NCBI GenBank assembly: GCA_964399775.1
Contig: CAYNSH010000001.1
Span: 56,370 to 120,369 of the forward strand
From: an uncultured Verrucomicrobiota bacterium
GTDB taxonomy: Bacteria; Verrucomicrobiota; Kiritimatiellia; CAIQIC01; Lenti-01
DNA: 64,000 nt
Direction of reading: 5' to 3'
The notes under the pieces were generated by a model. The model searched no databases and was not told where the DNA came from. It saw only the letters and a list, made by a program, of their open reading frames with translations. Made by a program: the position numbers and the translations under genes. Of the stretch, positions 12,310 to 62,648 are shown in pieces. Position 1 is the first letter of the stretch. The number at the start of each line of letters is the position of its first letter.

Positions 12310-13331
12310 GCGCGTCGTCAGGCCTCGTTGCCGTCCTCACCACGATCCAGCCGCCCACGCCGGCCGTGCGCGAACTGCATCGACGGCTGGCGGAATCCGG
12401 CGGCCGCCTCGTCGTGGCTGGCGATCAGAAGGGTCCCGCCGCGTTTGATCTGCCCGATTGCGATTTTCTCAGCCTGGCCGACCAGCAATCCAGCGGGTTC
12501 GCTCTGGCGGAAAAGTTGCCGGTGGGCCACTACGCCCGCAAGAACATCGGCTATCTCCATGCCATCCGCGCCGGCGCGGCGTGCCTCTACGAAACCGACG
12601 ACGACAATGCGCCCCTGCCGGGGTGGGCGCCGCGCACCGAAATTGTGGACCATGCCCGGCGCATTTCCGGTTCGGGTTGGGTGAACGCGTATCGCCACTT
12701 CGCCGAGGATCCGCAAATTTGGCCCCGCGGCTTTCCCTTGGAACAACTGAATTCCATCATTCCATCATTCCATCATTCCATCCTCTCAGCCTCTCCTCTC
12801 CGCGCACCCATCCAGCAGGGGTTGGTCAATGGATCGCCCGACGTGGATGCCGTCTGGCGGCTGACGCAGGACCGCCCGTTTGATTTTGACGAAGCCGCGC
12901 CCCTTTGGCTCGGCCCGGGCCAATGGTGCCCGTTCAATACCCAAAGCACGTGGTGGTGGCCCGCCGCCTATCCGCTACTCTATGTGCCGAGCCACTGCTC
13001 CTTTCGCATGTGCGACATCTGGAAAAGCTTCATCGCCCAGCGCTGCCTGTGGGCCATGGGCTGCGGCGTGGTGTTCCATCCGCCCGAGGTGCTTCAGGAC
13101 CGCAACCCCCACGATTATCTCCGCGATTTCCAGGACGAGGTTCCCGGCTACCTCCAAAATGCACGCATCGCCGAGATTCTCTCCGGCCTGGAACTGGCCG
13201 AAGGCGAGGGGGCCGTGGCGGACAATCTCTTGGCCTGCTACCGAGCCTTGATCCAAGAGACTGTTTTTCCCCCCGAAGAATGGACGCTGGTCAAGGCTTG
13301 GGTGCGGGATGGCTTCACCAGATCACCTTGA
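12306..13331 (+). CDS. DUF288/STELLO-like putative glycosyltransferase-family protein. Carries an in-frame (ATTCCATC)4 repeat insertion (12751-12803).
   Basis: HYARKNIGYLHAIRAGAACLYETDDDN…WWWPAAYPLLYVPS. ATGA overlap with wzt. The internal octamer repeat encodes SIIPSFHHSILSASPL. Confidence 0.45.
12751..12803 (+). repeat. (ATTCCATC)4 plus a CT-rich tract, embedded in-frame in the CDS.
   Basis: Direct tandem octamers seen in sequence, from the same ATTC-core family as the intergenic arrays. Confidence 0.8.
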
Positions 13332-26296: not shown

Positions 26297-27424
26297 ATGA
26301 GTGTTGCGGTTCGCTGGAGGACAGGGTTGGCCCGCCTGTCCTTGATGGGGCTGGCCCTAATGGCATCCCTGTTGCTGGCCGAAGGCATTGTGCGTGTGGT
26401 CGCCCCGCAACCGCTGAGCGGCTCCTGGCGCGTGGCGACTCCCTCCGGCCTGCTGGTCAACAAATCATCCGGTACGGCGCGGCATCAAGGCGGCGGGCGA
26501 ACGGTCCGGTACCGCTTTCATGAGCCCCATGTGCGGGATACGCCTTGGGTGCCGTCCGCGCGGCGGATTCTGCTCCTCGGCGATTCCTTCGCCTTTGGAT
26601 GGCTCCTGCATAAGGAAGAAACCATGGCCTGGCATCTGCAGCAACATGCGGATGCCGCCGTTGGAAAGGGGCAACTTCACTTCCTCAACGCGGCCGCCGG
26701 CGGGTGGGGTACGGCCCACTGCCTGGCGTTCCTGCAGGAGATCGGCGACCGGATTCAGCCGCATGCGGTCGTGGTCATTCTCAACACGGATGACATCGGG
26801 CGCAGCATTCGCAGCGGACTGTATGCGCGGAAGGACGGGGATCCGCCGCATTTGATCCGCCAAGCCGTCGGCCGCAGCCGGAAAAAGGAGCTGCTCAATG
26901 AGTGGCCCGGCTACCAATATCTCTTGGAGCATTCCCACCTGCTGCAGCTTGTCCGGCGCTATGAGGTGGCCAGGAGGCCGTCCGGCCGATCCGGAGGGCG
27001 CACGAGTGCGCCGTCAGCGGATCCATCCGTTCCGGATATTCCGATCCCGTCCTCCCAAGACATGGATGTGGCCGGCACAGAGGCCCAACGCTGGGGACGA
27101 GCGCTGTTTCGGGAAATCCAGCGCTGGTGCGCCGAACGGAATGTGGCCTTGTATGTCGCCACAACGGGGCGTCATGGCGCCATGCCCTCTACCCGGAACG
27201 AGGAACCCACCCATGCCTTCATGCGGCAGGCGTCCGCCATTTTTGCCGAAACGGGCATTCCGTTCCAGGACATCTCCCCGGACTTCCTGGCAATTCCCGA
27301 GCCGGATCGTGCGGCCCATTCGATTCCCGGCGATGGCCATCCTTCCCCGCTGGGCAGTCGCTTCATCGCCGAGCGAATCTGGACGACGCTTCTGAAAGAT
27401 CGATTGCTGGCGGATGGGATATAG
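26297..27424 (+). CDS. Membrane-anchored SGNH/GDSL hydrolase (putative polysaccharide O-acyl esterase/transferase).
   Basis: N-terminal TM helix. RILLLGDSFAFGW (block I) and GDGHPSP (block V). GAGGAGG lies upstream of the ATG at codon 27. Confidence 0.65.
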   Translation: MSVAVRWRTGLARLSLMGLALMASLLLAEGIVRVVAPQPLSGSWRVATPSGLLVNKSSGTARHQGGGRTVRYRFHEPHVRDTPWVPSARRILLLGDSFAFGWLLHKEETMAWHLQQHADAAVGKGQLHFLNAAAGGWGTAHCLAFLQEIGDRIQPHAVVVILNTDDIGRSIRSGLYARKDGDPPHLIRQAVGRSRKKELLNEWPGYQYLLEHSHLLQLVRRYEVARRPSGRSGGRTSAPSADPSVPDIPIPSSQDMDVAGTEAQRWGRALFREIQRWCAERNVALYVATTGRHGAMPSTRNEEPTHAFMRQASAIFAETGIPFQDISPDFLAIPEPDRAAHSIPGDGHPSPLGSRFIAERIWTTLLKDRLLADGI

Positions 27425-27476
27425 CCGCCCCGGCACGAATGGAAAGATGCAGGACACTGGCCACGAATGCCGGGAA

Positions 27477-28466
27477 ATGGTAGAAAACAAGCCAATTCCC
27501 ATGCAAACCTTCCAACAGCCTGAACGGGGAGATTCTTGCGTCGGCGTGGTCATTCCCACCTATCGGCGCGGCGCGGTGCTGCTGGAGACGCTGACGCATC
27601 TTCTTGAACTGGTTCCGCCGCCGGACGAAATCGTGGTGGTCGACCAAACCGAGGTCCATCCCCCCGATGTGGAAGAGACCTTGCAGGAGTGGGAGCGGGG
27701 GGGGCAGTTGCGGCGGTTGCGGATTTCGCCGCCCTCGATCCCGTGCGCGATGAATGCCGGCCTGCTGCAGGCCCGCGGTGGGATTGTCCTGTTTTTGGAC
27801 GACGATCTTGTGCCGGAGCCGGGGCTGATCGCGCACCACCGGCAAGCGCATGCGGAGCATCCCGACGCCTGGGCGGTCGTGGGCCAGGTGCTGCAGCCCG
27901 GAGAGGAGCCTTCCGCGTCGCCCCCGAGCCGCAAGGGGGGCAGCGCGCTCCGGCGCGATCTGGATTTTGCGTTCAATGGCATCGAACCGGCATGGGTGGA
28001 GAACGTCATGGCCGGCAATCTATCGGTCAAGCGCAGCCAGGCTTTGGCCGTTGGCGGATTCGATGAAAACTTCATCCCGCCGGTGTCGTTCCGATTTGAA
28101 ACCGAGTTTGCCCGGCGGCTGGTGGCCGCCGGCGGAAAAATCTGGTTCGAGCCGCAGGCGGCCATCCGCCATCTGCGTGCGGGCAGCGGCGGGACCCGCG
28201 CACGGGGAGGCCACATGGCCAGCGCTTCGCCCCTGCACGGCGTCGGCGACACCTACTATGCCCTGCGGCGCGGTCGCGGCTGGGACAGACTTTGGCATAT
28301 TCTCAAGCGGCCATTCCGCGAGGTCTGCACGAAATACCACCTGCGGCGTCCATGGTGGATTCCGGTCAAGTTCATCGGCGAACTCCGGGCGCTGGTGCTG
28401 GCGATCCGTCTGCATCGGGCAGGACCAAAGCTCCTAACCACGAAGGATGCGAGCGCGCACGAGTAG
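27477..28466 (+). CDS. Family 2 glycosyltransferase.
   Basis: CVGVVIPTYRRGAVLLETL…VVVDQTE…DDD. Start choice is uncertain: ATG 27447, 27477 and 27501 are all possible. Confidence 0.6.
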   Translation: MVENKPIPMQTFQQPERGDSCVGVVIPTYRRGAVLLETLTHLLELVPPPDEIVVVDQTEVHPPDVEETLQEWERGGQLRRLRISPPSIPCAMNAGLLQARGGIVLFLDDDLVPEPGLIAHHRQAHAEHPDAWAVVGQVLQPGEEPSASPPSRKGGSALRRDLDFAFNGIEPAWVENVMAGNLSVKRSQALAVGGFDENFIPPVSFRFETEFARRLVAAGGKIWFEPQAAIRHLRAGSGGTRARGGHMASASPLHGVGDTYYALRRGRGWDRLWHILKRPFREVCTKYHLRRPWWIPVKFIGELRALVLAIRLHRAGPKLLTTKDASAHE

Positions 28467-28633
28467 AAAACCATGACGATCCGGGGACCTGGCAACCACG
28501 AATGGCACGAATGAACACGAATAGAGAACGGATCCGGGGTTTTACCATTCGTGTAGATTCGAGTGATTCGTGGTTGGCTGTCTTGATAGAAATCCAGTAA
28601 CCACGAATAGCACGAATGAACACGAATAGGAGG
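28466..28633. repeat. Left copy of a ~170-bp repeat flanking the GxxExxY gene. It consists of CACGAAT(A/G)-type heptamer arms in inverted orientation around GAGAACGGATCCGGGGTTTTA.
   Basis: About 95% identical to 29046-29215. The internal inverted repeat AACCACGAAT…/…ATTCGTGGTT is seen directly. Confidence 0.8.
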
Positions 28634-28641
28634 GCATCAAA

Positions 28642-29019
28642 ATGACCGAACTCATCTACAAGGAGGAAGCCTATCAAATTGTCGGAGCCGCAATGGACGT
28701 ATACAACACGATGGGAAACGGGTTTGTTGAGCCGGTTTATCAAGAATGCGTGGAAATCGAACTTGGCCTGCGTGGAATTTCTTTTGAACAGCAGGTTCCC
28801 ATCCCGCTCGACTACAAGAGTCGTCGGCTGAAACAACAATATATTCCGGATTTGACCTGCTTTGGCAGTATCATTGTCGAGCTCAAGGCGGTCAAATCCA
28901 TCGTGGATGAGCATCGCGCCCAGCTTCTTAATTATTTGAAGGCGACCGGGCTGCACCTCGGCATGCTGGTGAACTTTGGGGCCTATCCCAAGCTGGAATG
29001 GGAGCGCATGGTACTTTGA
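28642..29019 (+). CDS. GxxExxY-family protein (small PD-(D/E)xK-like).
   Basis: MTELIYKEEAYQIVGAAMDVYNTMGNGFVEPVYQE…LLNYLKATGLHLGMLVNF matches the family. AGGAGGG lies upstream. Confidence 0.75.
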   Translation: MTELIYKEEAYQIVGAAMDVYNTMGNGFVEPVYQECVEIELGLRGISFEQQVPIPLDYKSRRLKQQYIPDLTCFGSIIVELKAVKSIVDEHRAQLLNYLKATGLHLGMLVNFGAYPKLEWERMVL

Positions 29020-29045
29020 GGCATACCCACGAATGGTTAGAGATA

Positions 29046-29255
29046 GAAAACCATGACGATCCGGAGACTTGGCAACCACGAATAGCACGAATGAACAAGA
29101 ATAGAGAACGGATCCGGGGTTTTACCATTCGTGTAGATTCGAGTGATTCGTGGTTGGCTGTCTTGATAGAAATCCAGTAACCACGAATAGCACGAATGAA
29201 CACGAATAGAGAACGGGTCGGAAGCTTAACATTCGTGTATATTCGAGTTATTCGT
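29046..29255. repeat. Right copy of the flanking repeat, with one extra degenerate unit.
   Basis: A direct repeat of 28466-28633. The GTG that opens ORF 29254 lies inside it. Confidence 0.8.
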
Positions 29256-29274
29256 GGTTAAATCAATCCCAGTG

Positions 29275-30399
29275 ATGCGAATTATCCTGTTGAACACGGC
29301 GCCTCCGGATCGGCCGGACGGCAGCATGGTCCGGTATGGCCGCATGGTCCGCGAGGCCTTGGAACGCCATGGCGGCGGGGCGTTCCAGGTGGAGGAAATC
29401 AACCTGGCTCCGGCGCAGGCTTGGTTGTCGCGGTTTCCGGCGCGCGTACAGACCCCCATCCGCTATGCCCGGATTGCGCTGGCCGCGAGGCGGCTGCTGC
29501 GCCGGGAGCACAACGCGATCCTTCACCTGCTGGATGGCAGCCACGCCTATCTGCTGGGTGTCGTTCGCCGTCTCCGCTCGCCGCTGGTGGTGACGGTCCA
29601 TGATCTAATCCCCCTCCTGCGGTTGCGCGGCGAGCTGGGCGATTTCCGGCCCGGGTGCATCGGCGGCTGGCTGGTCCGGCGCGCGGCGGACAACCTGGCG
29701 CGGGCGGATGCGGTGGCGGCAGTCAGCGCCAATACGCGCGCAGACGTGATTCGCCTGGCCGGCCTACCGCCGGAGCGCGTGCATGTCGTCCCCCATGCGA
29801 TGGACCTGGAGGCCGCCGTGCCGGCGCCGGGTCCACCCGCGTCGCCGCCCTATCTGCTCCACGTGGCGGGCAACAACACCTTCTATAAAAACCGGCAGGG
29901 CGTGGTGGAAGTGTTCAAACAGGTCCGGCGGTCCGAACCCGTGCGGCTCGTTCTGGCCGGTGCGCCGCCGGATGCCGCGCTTTCAGCGAAGGTGGCGGCC
30001 TCGGGCCTGGCATCGGAAATCGAATTTCGCCCCCACGTGACGGAGGCGGAATTGGCGTCGCTCTACCGGAATGCGGCGCTGTTGCTGTTCCCCAGCTTGT
30101 ACGAAGGCTTTGGTTGGCCGCCGCTGGAGGCGATGCTTCAGGGCTGCCCCGTGGTCTGCTCCGACGCCGGCTCGCTGCCCGAAGTCGTGGGCTCCGCCGC
30201 CTTGACCGCCCCGCCCGGCGACATCGCGGCCCTGGCCGGCCATGCGGTCCGGCTGTTGCGCGATCCCGGCCTGCGCCAGCGCCTGGCCGAAGAAGGCCTG
30301 CGGCATGTGCGGACTTTTACCTCCGAAGCGCTCGCATCCCGGCTCTGCGCGGTCTATCATCTGGCGGCTCAGGTGTTTTCAGGAAAAGGTCAGACGTGA
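29275..30399 (+). CDS. Family 4 glycosyltransferase.
   Basis: MRIILLNTAPP…LLLFPSLYEGFGWPPLEAMLQGCPVVCSDAGSLPEVV. Confidence 0.75.
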   Translation: MRIILLNTAPPDRPDGSMVRYGRMVREALERHGGGAFQVEEINLAPAQAWLSRFPARVQTPIRYARIALAARRLLRREHNAILHLLDGSHAYLLGVVRRLRSPLVVTVHDLIPLLRLRGELGDFRPGCIGGWLVRRAADNLARADAVAAVSANTRADVIRLAGLPPERVHVVPHAMDLEAAVPAPGPPASPPYLLHVAGNNTFYKNRQGVVEVFKQVRRSEPVRLVLAGAPPDAALSAKVAASGLASEIEFRPHVTEAELASLYRNAALLLFPSLYEGFGWPPLEAMLQGCPVVCSDAGSLPEVVGSAALTAPPGDIAALAGHAVRLLRDPGLRQRLAEEGLRHVRTFTSEALASRLCAVYHLAAQVFSGKGQT

Positions 30400-43437: not shown

Positions 43438-43710
43438 ATGCAAACCAGACACGCCACCATTGCCAACGCCCAGGGGATCCATTGCCGTCCATCGGCATTG
43501 ATCGTGAAGGAATTCCAGGGCTATTCCGGCCAGGTCAAGATCACCAACGGCAATGGATCCTGTGATCTCAGCTCCATCATGCAACTGCTCTCGCTGGAAA
43601 TGCACAAGGGCAATGTGGTCACCGTCGAAGTCGAGGGCGAAAACGAATCCGCCATGGCCGACCGGCTGGCGGAAATGCTTCAAACCAACTTCGATTTTCC
43701 CCCGGCCTGA
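43438..43710 (+). CDS. ptsH: Phosphocarrier protein HPr.
   Basis: GIHCRPSALIV has the His-15 motif. GSCDLSSIMQLLSLEMHKG has the regulatory Ser-46 region. 90 aa. Confidence 0.8.
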   Translation: MQTRHATIANAQGIHCRPSALIVKEFQGYSGQVKITNGNGSCDLSSIMQLLSLEMHKGNVVTVEVEGENESAMADRLAEMLQTNFDFPPA

Positions 43711-44852
43711 GCGGAGTCCCTTCGTCGGGACGGGCCCGGCTTCTCGAACGCAAACCGGTAGGCCTTCAGCCCCAGCGCGTCGCGCATGGCGATCATTTCC
43801 AGCCGGGTCTCGCGGTTGACGGGGACGCCATTGCGCAACCGCTCGCACTCGGTCAGGTATTCTTTTTCTCCGGCGGTATAAATGCGCTTGGCGCCGGGCA
43901 TCTTGCGCGAGGCGCGGAGCTGGCGCAAGATCTCGCCGGCGGTCTTCTTGAAGGCGATCAGCGGCGTGAAGTGCCGGATGTCGATGGCCAGAAAGAAGTG
44001 GCCAATGGGACAGGGGGCGGGGTTGCCGTTGCGGTCGCGCCCGCTGAGCATGTGCAGGAAGGCGCCCTGTTGCAGGGCCGCGCACAGGATTTCCACGGCC
44101 GTCGCATAGCCATAGCCCTTGTAGCCGGACCACTCTTCTCCGGCGCCGCCGAGCGGCAGCAGCGCCGCCTGGCCGCGGAGCAGATCCTCCAGCACCTGGT
44201 GCGGATCGGTGCGGGCGGAACCGTCCGGCCCGATCACCCACCCGGACGACAGCGGCTTGTCCAGCTTGGCATGCACTTCGACTTTGCCGCGCTGAATGGT
44301 CGATGTGGCGCAATCCAGCAGAAACGGGAACGGCTCATCCGTGGGCATGCCGAAGGTCAGGGGATTGGTCCCCAGCATGTTTTGCGTTCCAAAGGTCGGC
44401 GCCATGGAAGGCCGCGCATTGGTGCCCGTGATTCCGATCATGCCCGCCCGGACCGCCATCAGCGGATAATAGCCTGCGATGCCGTAATGGGTGGAGTTGC
44501 GCACCGCCACCATGCCCAGGCCATGGGTTTTCGCCTTGCGGATCGCCAGCGCCATCGCTTTTTTGGCCACGACGTGACCCATGCCGTTGCCACCGTCGAG
44601 TACGGCCGTCGCCCCCGCGTCCGCGATCTTTCGCAGACGGGTCCGGGGATGCTGGATCCCCTGCCGGATGCGGTCGTAGTAGATCGGCTTCAAGCGAGAA
44701 ATCCCATGCGAATCAAATCCCAACCGGTCGGCGGCGGCCAACACATCCGCGCAGATGGCGGCATCGGCCTTCGGCACCCCCAGACCGATGAATACGTCGC
44801 GCATGAAGCACTGTAGGGTATCCAGGGGTATGCGGGCGGATTTAGATTTCAT
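43680..44852 (-). CDS. Ldh_2-family (malate/L-lactate/sulfolactate dehydrogenase type 2) oxidoreductase.
   Basis: …LGFDSHGISRLKPIYYDRI…VRNSTHYGIAGYY…. Start at MKSKS (codon 41 of ORF 43680..44972), 8 nt after AGGAGA. Confidence 0.65.
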   Translation of the reverse strand: MKSKSARIPLDTLQCFMRDVFIGLGVPKADAAICADVLAAADRLGFDSHGISRLKPIYYDRIRQGIQHPRTRLRKIADAGATAVLDGGNGMGHVVAKKAMALAIRKAKTHGLGMVAVRNSTHYGIAGYYPLMAVRAGMIGITGTNARPSMAPTFGTQNMLGTNPLTFGMPTDEPFPFLLDCATSTIQRGKVEVHAKLDKPLSSGWVIGPDGSARTDPHQVLEDLLRGQAALLPLGGAGEEWSGYKGYGYATAVEILCAALQQGAFLHMLSGRDRNGNPAPCPIGHFFLAIDIRHFTPLIAFKKTAGEILRQLRASRKMPGAKRIYTAGEKEYLTECERLRNGVPVNRETRLEMIAMRDALGLKAYRFAFEKPGPSRRRDSAQAGGKSKLV

Positions 44853-44973
44853 AAACATGTCTCCTGACGATCGAAGGTAGGCTACTGGCAAAACGGGGTC
44901 AAGTGAAGGGATGGGCCCCGGTTGCGAAAAGCCCGCTATCCTCTTCTCAGGCCACGCTTCATCGATCAACAAT

Positions 44974-44996
44974 AAAATGTTTAATTAAACATTTGA
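44974..44996. promoter_or_regulatory. 18-bp perfect palindrome AATGTTTAATTAAACATT, operator-like site 1.
   Basis: Seen in sequence. AT-rich in a GC-rich genome. Repeated at 45084-45106. Confidence 0.55.
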
Positions 44997-45083
44997 TGCG
45001 AATAACGGCCAAGATAATTGAAATATTCATTGTAACGCCAATTCTATGAGATAGATAAAGTACAAGCAGGTTAAGCCATGACT

Positions 45084-45106
45084 TCAATGTTTAATTAAAC
45101 ATTTTA
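45084..45106. promoter_or_regulatory. Second copy of the AATGTTTAATTAAACATT palindrome, about 110 bp from the first and about 85 bp upstream of the PaaK-like gene.
   Basis: Seen in sequence. Confidence 0.55.
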
Positions 45107-45187: not shown

Positions 45188-46519
45188 ATGAAGAACGCCA
45201 CAAGACCCGCGAATCGCATTTGGAATCCGGCCTGCGAATGCCTGCCGCGAAAAGAATTGAACGCGCTCCAACTCGACCGCTTGAAACAGGTAGTGCGGCT
45301 GGCCTGGGAGAAGGTGCCCTACTATCGCGCCAAGATGGAGGCGGCCGGCCTGCGGCCCGACGAGATCCGTTCGCTGGCGGACCTTCCCAAGCTGCCGTTC
45401 ACCACCAAGGATGACCTGCGCGGCTGTTTTCCCTACAAGGCCTTCGCGGTGCCGATGGAGGAGGTGATCCGGATCCATGCGTCGTCGGGAACAACTGGGC
45501 AGGCCACCGTCGTGGGCTATACCCGCGGGGACATGGAAACCTGGACCGAGCTGATGGCGCGCCTGCAGACCGCCGCCGGGGTGACCAACGCCGACATCGT
45601 CCAGATCGCCTTCGGCTACGGCTTCTTTACCGGCGGCCTGGGGCACCACTATGGCGTGGAATGCGTGGGCGCGGCGGTGCTGCCCGTCTCCTCCGGCCGC
45701 AGCGAGCGCCAGATCCAGATCATGAAGGACTACCAGTCCACCGTCCTGATCTGCACCCCCTCCTACGGCATGTACCTCGGCGAGTTGATCGACAAGCTGG
45801 GCGCCGCCGGCGACATCCGCCTGCGCCTGGGACTCTTTGGCGGCGAGGCCTGGACCGACGCCATGCGCCAGGCCCTCCAGAAGCATCTCGGCGTCTTCGC
45901 CACCGACAACTACGGCCTCAGTGAGGTGATGGGGCCCGGCGTTTCCTGCGAGTGCGTCGAACAAAACGGCATGCACATTGCCGAAGATCATTTCCTGCCG
46001 GAGTGGATCGATTCGCAAAGCGGCGAACCGGCGCCGGATCCCTCCGGTGCCGGCGGCGAACTGGGCATCACCACCTTGACGAAAGAGGCCATCCCCGTCA
46101 TCCGCTACCGCACCCGCGACCTGTGCACCCTCCTGCCCGGCGAGTGCCCCTGCGGGCGCACCGGCCGGCGCATGAGCAAGGTGTCGGCGCGCAGCGACGA
46201 CATGCTCATCATTCGCGGGGTGAATGTCTATCCGCAGCAGATCGAGGAGGCCCTGCTGGCGATCGAGGGCGTGGCCCCGCACTACCAGATCGTCGTCAGC
46301 CGCCAGGGCGCGCTCGACGAACTGGAAGTGCTCGTCGAAGTGACGGAACACCTGTTCTTCGACGAAATGACCAAGCAGCAGAAGTTCAAGGAGATGATCG
46401 AGCACAAGCTGGCGACCTCGCTGGCGGTGCATGCCAAGGTGCGCCTGGTCGAGCCGGGCCACACGCCGCGATCGGAAGGCAAGGCCGTCCGGGTGATCGA
46501 CCAGCGCCCCAAGGGTTGA
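45188..46519 (+). CDS. Phenylacetate-CoA ligase (PaaK/F390-synthetase) family adenylate-forming enzyme.
   Basis: KVPYYRAKMEAAGLRP…IRIHASSGTTGQATVVGYT…YGLSE match the PaaK family. Confidence 0.75.
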   Translation: MKNATRPANRIWNPACECLPRKELNALQLDRLKQVVRLAWEKVPYYRAKMEAAGLRPDEIRSLADLPKLPFTTKDDLRGCFPYKAFAVPMEEVIRIHASSGTTGQATVVGYTRGDMETWTELMARLQTAAGVTNADIVQIAFGYGFFTGGLGHHYGVECVGAAVLPVSSGRSERQIQIMKDYQSTVLICTPSYGMYLGELIDKLGAAGDIRLRLGLFGGEAWTDAMRQALQKHLGVFATDNYGLSEVMGPGVSCECVEQNGMHIAEDHFLPEWIDSQSGEPAPDPSGAGGELGITTLTKEAIPVIRYRTRDLCTLLPGECPCGRTGRRMSKVSARSDDMLIIRGVNVYPQQIEEALLAIEGVAPHYQIVVSRQGALDELEVLVEVTEHLFFDEMTKQQKFKEMIEHKLATSLAVHAKVRLVEPGHTPRSEGKAVRVIDQRPKG

Positions 46520-46540: not shown

Positions 46541-47251
46541 ATGGAAACGGCTGAAAGCCTGCGGGGGAAGGTGGCGCTGGTGACGGCCGGCGCCCGGCGC
46601 ATCGGGGCGTCCATCTGCCGCGAGCTGGCGGCGCGCGGCGCCAGCGTGGTTGTGCATTACCACCACTCCGAGGGCGAGGCGCTCGCGTTGAACCGCTCGC
46701 TGGGTCGCGGCGTGTTTTCGGTGCGCGGCGACCTGTCCACCGCCCAGGGCTGCGAATGGGTCTTCCACGAAGCCGTCGAATGGATGGGGCGGGTGGATAT
46801 TCTGGTCAACAACGCCTCGCTTTTCGCCCGCGACGGCGAAATGGAGCCGCCGGCCCTGCGCGCCATCAACGTCGAGGCTCCCCTGCACCTCGCGGGGAGG
46901 GTGGCCGCGCAACCGTCCGGCGGATGCGTCATCCATCTGCTCGACAGCCGCATCGCCCGCGCGGAACCAGGCGGTTTCTCCGCCTACGCCGCGACCAAGC
47001 GCGAACTGGCCGAGTCGGTGCCGCGCTGCGCCCGCGAATGGGCCCCGCGCGTCCGCGTCAACGGCGTCGCCCCCGGCCCCGTCCTGGCGCCGGAAGGCGT
47101 CCGCGAACCCGCCGGCGACCTCCCCCTCGGGCGGCGACCCGATCCCGAAGACGTCGCCCGCGCCGTCGCGTTTCTTGCCGAAGCCGGCGCCGTTACCGGT
47201 CAAATCCTGTTTGTCGACGGCGGGCAGCATCTGGGGAATAAGCTGGAATGA
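46541..47251 (+). CDS. SDR-family oxidoreductase.
   Basis: GKVALVTAGARRIGASI (TGxxxGxG-like) and NNAS…YAATK are the catalytic YxxxK elements. Confidence 0.75.
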   Translation: METAESLRGKVALVTAGARRIGASICRELAARGASVVVHYHHSEGEALALNRSLGRGVFSVRGDLSTAQGCEWVFHEAVEWMGRVDILVNNASLFARDGEMEPPALRAINVEAPLHLAGRVAAQPSGGCVIHLLDSRIARAEPGGFSAYAATKRELAESVPRCAREWAPRVRVNGVAPGPVLAPEGVREPAGDLPLGRRPDPEDVARAVAFLAEAGAVTGQILFVDGGQHLGNKLE

Positions 47252-47295
47252 TGGAATGTGGGAATGCTGGAATGTGGGAATGATGGAATAATGGA
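47252..47295. repeat. (TGGAATGN)n tandem array, the GGAAT orientation of the ATTCC family.
   Basis: gatggaatgtgggaatgctggaatgtgggaatgatggaataatgg. Confidence 0.75.
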
Positions 47296-50772: not shown

Positions 50773-51109
50773 TCAAGGGAACAGCCGGAGGACGTTTTAG
50801 ACAGGATGAACAGGATTTTTCAGGATTCACAGGATTGAACAGCCGATTGGCCACAAAGCTTTCCAAGCCGCAGGCATGGAGCACAAAGAGGTTTTGGCTC
50901 CAGGCCTCCAATCGTGTCGCTCTCTGTGTTCTATGTGCTCTATGTGGCTGATTCATTTTTCCTTTGTTTCCTGTGTTCCTGCTTGGGCTTTCTGCCCGAC
51001 CTGATTCACCCCTGCCACGAGGGCATGGGGGTCTTTTTGGGCGTTGTGGATTGACGGGGGGTTGGATAGAGTGGGCGGCCCGATTGGGTTGAACGGAAAG
51101 AGGCCGCGC

Positions 51110-62537: not shown

Positions 62538-62648
62538 TTCCATCCCAACATTTTACCATTCCACCATTCCACCATTCCACCATTCCAATATCCCAATATT
62601 CCATCATTCCATTCCTCCAGTATTCCCTCTCCCCATCCCCCCCCCCCC
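62538..62648. repeat. (ATTCCAC)4 / ATTCCAT heptamer array ending in a C12 homopolymer that abuts the exonuclease ATG.
   Basis: ccattccaccattccaccattccaccattccaatatcccaatattccatcattccatt…cccatcccccccccccATG. Confidence 0.8.

Follow-up and report, generated by a model that had tools for sequence, protein, structure and literature searches.

The question raised by the locus analysed here is how a small gene came to stand, framed by repeats, inside a glycosyltransferase operon. The stretch studied (hereafter the window) comprises 64,000 nucleotides (nt) of an uncultured Verrucomicrobiota bacterium (assembly GCA_964399775.1, contig CAYNSH010000001.1, positions 56,370 to 120,369), and the gene, which encodes a protein of the GxxExxY family, lies in it between a family 2 (GT2) and a family 4 (GT4) glycosyltransferase gene. 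We consider it somewhat probable that a widespread compact nuclease element is present in the region as an old copy, passed on by vertical descent, a reading that takes the anatomy and history of the cassette together with its mobility. The anatomy and history, as described below, we hold with high confidence, and we attribute the mobility only tentatively to the GxxExxY nuclease. The anatomy, an inverted bracket found across the family, a unit of paralogy, purifying selection and presence/absence polymorphism were all observed here.

Organization of the cassette

The GxxExxY gene (28642-29019, on the + strand like the other parts of the cassette and the two glycosyltransferase genes; 378 nt, 125 aa) begins 8 nt downstream of its own ribosome-binding site (RBS), the AGGAGG at 28628-28633 which the initial annotation had also assigned to it. 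This RBS adjoins an arm, F2 (28598-28627), composed of three CACGAAT units spaced by 9 and 10 nt; each F arm of the block has this composition, and the R arms are its mirror image. With the gene in between, F2 is 87% complementary over 30 nt to R4, the R arm that lies farthest out, and 83% complementary to R3.

Three hairpins of the same type that contain no gene accompany this bracket. Hairpin H1 (28493-28576) is located upstream of the gene and consists of F1 (28493-28522), a loop (28523-28546) and R1 (28547-28576), its arms being 83% complementary. Downstream are H3 (29073-29156; F3 29073-29102, loop, R3 29127-29156) and H4 (29178-29260; F4 29178-29207, loop, R4 29231-29260), the latter with 87% complementarity. 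The F arm of H1 and H3 reads AACCACGAATrGCACGAATGAACACGAAT (28493-28522 and 29073-29102), the loop AGAGAACGGATCCGGGGTTTTACC and the R arm ATTCGTGTAGATTCGAGTGATTCGTGGTT (28547-28576 and 29127-29156). After each R arm comes a 22-nt spacer and then another F arm (28598-28627 and 29178-29207), and the hairpins of the locus are arrayed in tandem, with about 105 nt per unit. The tail 3' of the stop codon (29020-29072) carries a lone CACGAAT unit (29028-29034) followed by a segment S (GAAAACCATGACGATCCGGAGACTTGGC).

Part of this block is present twice. The first copy of the direct repeat (28464-28629) includes segment S/tail, H1, the spacer and F2, and the second (29044-29209) includes segment S, H3, the spacer and F4. 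The copies, of 166 nt each and with their outer limits at 28464 and 29209, are 97.6-98% identical, a similarity that cannot have arisen by chance within 64 kb, and the resulting A-B-A layout (repeat-gene-repeat) has a period of 580 nt. The initial annotation had recognized these flanking repeats, with coordinates displaced by about 2-6 nt and an identity of about 95%, and had rightly described each as an inverted pair of CACGAAT arms, which corresponds to one hairpin per copy; what it called an extra degenerate unit proved to be a third full hairpin, H4 (F4/R4).

On both sides the block is bordered by the glycosyltransferase genes. The GT2 gene (27414-28466; PF00535) ends within a degenerate F-type arm, F0 (28436-28466, the last ~30 nt of the gene, ...AACCACGAAGGATGCGAGCGCGCACGAGTAG), which provides its C-terminus and stop codon and has 62-70% identity with the remaining F arms. 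The GT4 gene (29275-30399; PF00534/PF13439), whose start was called identically in L001, follows R4. The GC content falls from ~0.66-0.70 outside to ~0.45-0.50 across positions 28450-29270, and 18 of the 25 CACGAAT/ATTCGTG heptamers of the window are clustered at the cassette. Compared with shuffled sequences, folding of the downstream block (29020-29275) was strongly favoured (z=-6.2) and that of the upstream block was weaker (z=-2.5). A search of the repeats and of positions 28300-29400 against Rfam gave no rRNA or other family at E<=1, only sub-threshold microRNA noise, and a scan for promoters and terminators gave nothing exceeding shuffles.

An antisense open reading frame (ORF) of 238 aa (28372-29088, - strand) covers the entire GxxExxY gene, and comparable antisense ORFs were seen in L128, L179, L180, L187 and L199. 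They are probably a by-product of codon usage.

The inverted bracket in other loci

We then compared the locus with 80 unrelated metagenome loci carrying homologues 55-64% identical to the window protein, of which 73 were testable and 72 complete. In almost every case an F arm adjoined the RBS or start codon of the gene and its reverse complement lay just 3' of the stop codon. An inverted repeat with a score of at least 15 surrounded the gene in 44 of 73 loci, and the score was above that of all shuffles in 54 of 73. The median bracket score was 17 in the inverted orientation, 7.5 in the direct orientation and 7 in shuffles, and none of 80 control ORFs from the same loci reached a score of 15. 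The simple layout F-gene-R was the commonest (29/72), while the layout of the window with its extra hairpins, F-gene-F-loop-R, was found in a minority of about 8-12 of the 72 complete loci. Other GxxExxY genes, for which the initial annotation had proposed a search, do have matching flanks, but the flank that defines the family is inverted, and the direct repeat of ~170 nt is specific to the lineage of the window.

The geometry of the arms is also shared. Their unit has the consensus C-R-C-G-A-A-W, with the variants CACGAAA, CACGAAT, CGCGAAT, CGCGAAA and CACGGAT, and in a set of 47 loci used for arm geometry the spacing of the units was (9,9) or (9,10) in 44, with a median of 13 nt from the end of the third unit to the start codon, a rule that the position of F2 in the window matches. 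When all the small ORFs bracketed by such arms were considered, 43 of 50 were GxxExxY genes, and the remaining seven were antisense artefacts or ordinary genes between two hairpins. Other cargo families, such as the four-helix-bundle S23p, were absent from the arms of the loci sampled, and may be found elsewhere.

One locus shows what the duplicating unit is. In L172 (2148-5256), a single nuo operon contains two elements, one between nuoK and nuoL and the other between nuoL and nuoM (names deduced from gene size, gene order and related loci). The two are 83% identical, and their similarity starts and stops exactly at the ends of the outer arms. Since the homology ends at the outer arms, the unit that duplicates consists of arm, gene and arm. 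Insertions at nuoK|nuoL were also observed in four further contigs (L188, L196, L204 and L206).

Distant homologues (29-46% identity) in annotated replicons are framed likewise across phyla. In Sphingomonas the gene lies between fabD and fabG with arms of three CGCGAAG units, in Bacteroides and Bernardetia it is surrounded by CACAGAG arms, and in Prevotella and Fusobacteria it has direct-repeat flanks. The host junctions comprise nuoK|nuoL, nuoL|nuoM, fabD|fabG, the ATPase|permease pair of an ATP-binding cassette (ABC) transporter and GT2|GT4, and about 80-85% of the elements are co-oriented with both neighbouring genes.

Such inverted arms could act in RNA as well as in DNA. As stems of the operon transcript (the long stem of F2 with R3 or R4, and the local hairpins), they would serve RNase III or stability and release the nuclease messenger from the GT2-GT4 polycistron or insulate it, the role of the protein in the cell being unrelated. 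The anatomy resembles that of the ORF-bearing 23S rRNA intervening sequence (IVS) of Coxiella, the F arm always adjoins the RBS, stems of 28-30 bp are sufficient for RNase III, the hairpins have been kept over a synonymous divergence (dS) of ~1, no promoter or terminator belonging to the gene was detected, and the elements are mostly co-oriented with their neighbours. However, this last proportion is barely above the ~70% typical of neighbouring bacterial genes, and cleavage of a stem in the messenger would split the operon transcript. The sequence of the heptads and their 9/10-nt phasing are kept across phyla, although a plain stem needs neither, and conservation extends to the sequences of the loop and tail. 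The mismatches of the arms, which are 91% Watson-Crick paired, included 20 of the G-U type and 29 of the A-C type; this lack of a sense-strand G-U excess fits arms that act in DNA better than a sense-RNA stem, and a signal of sense-RNA pairing was therefore rejected. We consider a role limited to the transcript, the main alternative to our reading, unlikely, though it keeps appreciable weight.

The GxxExxY protein

The product of the gene matched the TIGR04256 (GxxExxY) profile with 143.3 bits (cut-off 35; E=3.8e-42; profile positions 2-116 of 116) and PF13366 (PDDEXK_3) with 145 bits (cut-off 22; E=1.6e-42), its sole Pfam match. By these profile matches it is a full-length, bona fide member of the GxxExxY/PDDEXK_3 family, which comprises 23,299 clusters at 50% identity (E<=1e-3). 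The eponymous motif (G27-F-V-E30-P-V-Y33) was invariant among 28 homologues, as were the putative catalytic residues D70, E80 and K82 (IPD...VELK; 28/28), in agreement with the PD-(D/E)xK-like character given to the protein by the initial annotation. The AlphaFold model (pLDDT, the per-residue confidence, 90.8) has the order two helices, five strands, helix and two strands, and its Foldseek matches were Cas4 SSO0001 (E=1.7e-5), lambda exonuclease, the Holliday-junction resolvase Hjc and the archaeal splicing endonuclease EndA. According to this model, the 125-aa protein is a minimal restriction-endonuclease-like alpha/beta core with a nuclease fold. A sequence search of the PDB returned no related solved structure, and the literature that we searched gives the function of the family as unknown and contained no biochemical study of it.

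History of the locus among relatives

An identical protein was found in other assemblies only at this same locus. In L124/L125 and L126, whose proteins are 86% and 85% identical to that of the window, the cassette occupies the same GT2-GT4 junction with CACGAAT hairpins on both sides. In these relatives the GT2 stop codon lies within an intact arm F0, ending CACGAATAG, an unpaired F arm adjoins the AGGAGG, and the same tail and a hairpin follow the gene. This hairpin is orthologous to H3 of the window, and the three genomes have a mean column identity of 84% over it, loop included. Outside the coding sequence, the arms, loop, spacer and tail of the window, L124 and L126 have an identity of 84-89%, while the flanking genes compared with their orthologues have a dS of 0.9-1.1 and a third-position identity of ~50%. 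For the GxxExxY gene, dS was 0.56-0.64, and the ratio of nonsynonymous to synonymous divergence (dN/dS) was ~0.10-0.15, the values against these orthologues being ~0.12-0.15. Such a low dN/dS together with the conserved non-coding arms shows that both the gene and the hairpins are under purifying selection.

The dS of the gene (0.20, 0.56 and 0.64) tracks that of the host (0.55 and 0.9-1.1), which argues for vertical descent and no recent transfer; a recent horizontal arrival at the locus was rejected on the same ground. Comparison of these sequences indicates that the cassette is old and vertically inherited, in place since before the lineages of the window, L124 and L126 split. We also observed that the dS of the gene was steadily about half that of the flanking genes in the comparisons with L124 and L126, and that its GC content at third codon positions (GC3) is 0.62 compared with 0.80 despite the long residence, which points to a constraint on synonymous sites or on composition.

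The direct repeat has a different age. Within the window R1 and R3 are 100% identical, whereas R0, the orthologous arm in L124/L126, is different. The 166-nt repeat therefore goes back to a recent, lineage-specific event in which a copy of the downstream block replaced the upstream one, through duplication or gene conversion between tandem units. In the orthologues of L124/L126 there is no direct repeat, and the upstream and downstream hairpins differ.

These observations bear on the possibility, which takes the word cassette of the initial annotation literally, that the unit is of the integron type, or was otherwise captured, and entered in circular form through site-specific recombination at the repeat. 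The integration of a circle made of repeat and gene is expected to leave an A-B-A layout such as the one with the 580-nt period, F-gene-F-loop-R recurs in ~10-15% of loci, and the ORF is promoterless with its own RBS. However, the orthologues have differing hairpins and no direct repeat, and the repeats matched no attC or other Rfam family (E<=1). Unlike attC sites, whose design is R''-L''/L'-R', the arms stand on both sides of the gene and contain triple heptads. The cassette also differs from an integron cassette in lying among glycosyltransferase genes, within a biosynthetic operon, with no attI array or attI/intI platform; none of the genes annotated around the cassette in the window, in L124 or in L126 is integrase-like, no integrase scan of the whole window having been made. 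We therefore judge this origin very improbable.

Cassette-free junctions were found in three related loci. In L207 (JGI Ga0643523_0171729), the closest relative with ~90% nucleotide identity on both flanks, 34 nt replace 857 nt of the window. Its GT2 and GT4 form one in-frame ORF (L207 1-1530; ...GPKLLTTNETRRILLINTAAPDRPDG..., ...LLTTNETRRILLINT...), and the junction retains AACCACGAATGA, which in L124/L126 makes up the initial 12 nt of arm F0. Since GT2 and GT4 are separate genes in all the other relatives, the most plausible reading of L207 is that the cassette was deleted secondarily, perhaps at an ATGA microhomology, and L207 was rejected as a pristine empty site on the basis of the in-frame fusion and the retained AACCACGAATGA. 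L207 may be a natural bifunctional GT2-GT4 fusion made by deletion of the cassette. In L208 (GT4 63% identical), GT2 and GT4 overlap with neither CACGAAT nor cassette, and L209 (GT4 63% identical) has no cassette either.

The initial annotation had proposed an insertion into a tightly overlapping GT2-GT4 run and had suggested that related genomes be compared for an empty site. The overlapping genes of L208 and the cassette-free junction of L207 agree with a discrete unit, but the insertion is not recent, the same site being occupied at a dS of ~1, and the cassette-free junction of L207 looks like a secondary deletion with an arm scar. The gene was neither present without repeats in all relatives nor unflanked in its other copies.

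Hairpins without a gene

The distribution of the arms was determined by searching 2 x 596 Gb for the strict arm pattern CACGAATNNCACGAATNNNCACGAAT (21 fixed bases), with NN/NNN spacing; an earlier form, CACGAATNNNCACGAATNNNCACGAAT, in which the spacing was wrong, gave no match. The strict pattern matched at least 120 genome stretches, compared with ~0.3 expected by chance according to our own calculation. The matches listed, to which the counts of this paragraph refer, included Flavobacterium, Chitinophagaceae, Prevotella, Planctomycetota, Verrucomicrobiota, Acidobacteriota, Chloroflexota, Sulfuricella and others. Most of them were hairpins without a gene, 78 of 150 arms had a partner within 200 nt, and the hairpins were often nested with hairpins of other types. 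A GxxExxY gene was present at 8 of the 120 CACGAAT-hairpin loci, within 70 nt of the arm in four. The hairpins are thus a much wider family than the gene, and their exclusive association with GxxExxY was rejected.

It could then be asked whether there is an element at all, or only ordinary intergenic repeats similar to repetitive extragenic palindromes (REPs), acting as terminators, insulators or binding sites, next to an ordinary host gene family with inherited flanks, the direct repeat being due to replication slippage. The abundance of gene-less hairpins, far more widespread than the gene, would be expected in this case, and the hairpins of AT-rich genomes are bordered by T and A runs in the manner of bidirectional terminators. 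The window contains several other short-period intergenic repeats, and the copy studied here has been resident for long and is under purifying selection. However, the gene is found at the junctions of unrelated conserved operons with homology ending exactly at the outer arms, no control gene was bracketed likewise (0/80), and GxxExxY is the sole recurrent cargo. In addition, the GC content of the cassette is ~0.2 under that of the host (GC3 0.62 vs 0.80), and its presence or absence differs between close relatives. Ordinary repeats around an ordinary gene are in our opinion a rather improbable account of the locus.

Several hairpins deserve separate mention. In the Flavobacterium loci L004, L023, L038, L040 and L105, a second hairpin type (GCCACAGATT...AATCTGTGGC) often occupies the loop of the CACGAAT hairpin, and the CACGAAT hairpins, with T and A runs at their borders, may also serve as bidirectional terminators. 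In L062 (890-1843), a metagenome-assembled genome of Prevotellaceae, the GxxExxY gene adjoins three tandem CACGAAT hairpins with a 163-nt period, a layout equal to that of the window, gene plus tandem gene-less hairpins, in a different phylum. The window itself has a degenerate gene-less hairpin in an unrelated intergenic region (1816-1900, + strand; AACCACGAATGACACCAATGGACACGAAT ... TTTCGTGGATTTTGCGTCTTTCGTAGTGG), which was recovered by blastn at 90.6% identity over 32 nt.

Proposed mechanism

The sequence of the heptads, their helical phasing, the mirror-image arms, the catalytic triad and the paralogy unit that extends from arm to arm together point to a protein-DNA system in which the nuclease recognizes the arms. 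The element would consist of a gene for a PD-(D/E)xK protein of ~125 aa between terminal inverted arms of three C-R-C-G-A-A-W heptads, and the copy in the window would occupy the junction of GT2 and GT4, accompanied by three hairpins with the same kind of arms and no gene. The gene, which has its own RBS, no recognizable promoter and the orientation of the operon, is probably expressed from the host transcript. Its product would bind the phased heptads in the DNA of the arms and cut at or near them, or cut the hairpin DNA, and host recombination and repair would then copy, move or delete the cassette, with the 28-30-bp arms as homology. The gene-less hairpins could be derivatives or targets of the element, comparable to the miniature inverted-repeat transposable elements (MITEs) of transposons or to the REPs of REP-associated tyrosine transposases (RAYTs). 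The data suggest a widespread, undescribed selfish cassette, and the repeat-framed element is probably selfish. The broader proposal, that GxxExxY nucleases are the enzymes behind pan-bacterial hairpin elements with arms of triple phased heptads ("homing into hairpins"), we put forward as a speculation that is on balance doubtful.

Several observations weigh against a mobile nuclease element. A PD-(D/E)xK protein of 125 aa is incapable of strand transfer alone, and our literature search showed no nuclease activity, DNA binding or transposition for any member of the family. The protein matched nothing in phage genomes and PHROGs, and its only match in PADLOC, a library of defence systems, was insignificant, so that these collections give no hint of a role. 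Most of the hairpins among the matches listed had no GxxExxY gene within 8 kb, and the hairpins may be an independent host feature. Arm type follows protein similarity only weakly (63.2% vs 60.2% identity), a difference of 3 points on which a tight co-evolution of arm type and protein was rejected. The gene tracks the divergence of its host, as described above; this copy has been static for a dS of ~1 and the paralogues are old (83% identity), so that mobility must be rare. The sole close empty site looks like a deletion and not a pre-insertion allele, and no target-site duplication was evident on inspection of the sequence outside the arms, the close empty site being a deletion scar. Our searches also found no identical recent copies of the element.

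GxxExxY/PDDEXK_3 is a very large family whose members appear as unexplained small genes in nuo, fab, ABC-transporter and polysaccharide operons. The frame common to most of them, with the gene in the loop of inverted triple-heptad arms, and the gene-less hairpins lead to a testable hypothesis, in which the nuclease and its cognate DNA sites form a pair. The arms account for assembly breaks at these loci and allow annotation pipelines to recognize the insertions. There are possible links to two long-standing questions, namely how REP-like hairpins have spread in genomes outside the proteobacteria and the origin of the ORF-bearing rRNA IVSs, which "homing into hairpins", if true, could explain; it would also define a new minimal nuclease-driven mobile element.

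Comparison with known elements

Taken in its entirety, the element belongs to none of the described families, the closest being an IVS or a REP/RAYT-type hairpin element with a PD-(D/E)xK nuclease. No description of the architecture (arms plus GxxExxY gene) was found in the literature searched, the coverage of which was incomplete.

The ORF-bearing 23S rRNA IVSs of Leptospira and Coxiella, which contain an S23p ORF, are similarly compact (~430-600 nt), with terminal inverted repeats, a ~28-bp stem, a single ORF of ~120 aa in the loop and three heptamer repeats beside the ORF start. They also have ORF-less hairpin versions, lie in the sense orientation within a transcribed host unit, and are of unexplained origin and mobility. 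The IVS of Coxiella measures 428 nt, has a terminal-inverted-repeat stem of 28 bp with three GACAGAT heptamers beside the ORF start, and is cleaved by RNase III within the stem (PMC4990558). In contrast, the host site here is the junction of an mRNA operon and not helix 25/45 of the 23S rRNA, and the cargo is a PD-(D/E)xK protein (PF13366) rather than an S23p four-helix bundle (PF05635). The heptads are 9-10 nt apart inside the stem, whereas those of IVSs are in 7-nt tandem, RNase III cleavage is known for IVSs whereas for the present stems it is a possibility, and the window copy has additional tandem hairpins.

The REP/REPIN-RAYT systems likewise have short palindromes dispersed or in tandem in intergenic DNA, gene-less repeats that far outnumber the gene, a small (<200 aa) nuclease-type gene flanked by inverted repeats, and mostly vertical inheritance. 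They differ in having a HUH Y1 transposase instead of a PD-(D/E)xK fold and a GTAG-headed REP instead of triple phased heptads, and, unlike them, the GxxExxY family is multi-copy per genome, with elements inside operons.

MITEs and small insertion sequences (Correia elements; IS200/IS605) have terminal inverted repeats of 26-30 bp, close to the 28-30 nt of the present arms, and share with our element gene-less forms of 70-110 bp beside forms of ~500 bp that contain one small ORF, repeated motifs in sub-terminal position that resemble binding sites, and co-transcription with neighbours. However, the sole ORF here belongs to PF13366, with no DDE, HUH, serine or tyrosine recombinase, and no target-site duplication was seen.

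Free-standing homing endonuclease genes are known, and I-Ssp6803I is a homing enzyme with the PD-(D/E)xK fold, which provides a precedent. Like these genes, the element is a small nuclease gene between conserved genes, none of which is disrupted, with presence/absence polymorphism among relatives. Unlike them, it has repeated hairpin arms and resides in cellular chromosomes with no phage matches, and for it the cleavage of an empty allele is a supposition.

Other repeats of the window

Some other repeats of the window were recorded. An intergenic composite repeat is present in two copies about 930 nt apart (742-860 and 1668-1795), made of ATTCAAT x4-5, a GC-rich palindrome (GGCGCGCTGGC.CAGCGCGCC) and ATTCGAC x3-4; the degenerate CACGAAT hairpin at 1816-1900 closely follows its second copy. 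A low-GC intergenic region (50800-50990) contains nested hairpins of other unit types, in which ACAGGAT x4 (9-10-nt spacing) pairs with TTCCTGT-type units and an inner GCCACAAAG... pairs with CTCTGTGTTCTATGTGCTCTATGTGGC, so that the genome has several families of triple-unit hairpins.

Tandem arrays of 8-mers are located at 12751-12784, 47244-47290 and 62555-62603 (ATTCCATC x4, TGGAATGN x6 and ACCATTCC x4, respectively), and their three units seem to be versions of a single motif that occurs in both orientations. Finally, an 18-nt sequence containing a palindrome, ATGTTTAATTAAACATTT, occurs twice about 110 nt apart at 44975-45106, in a gap with a GC content of ~0.42 that separates the divergent ORFs 43680-44972 (- strand) and 45188-46519 (+ strand), and this pair looks like a paired operator.

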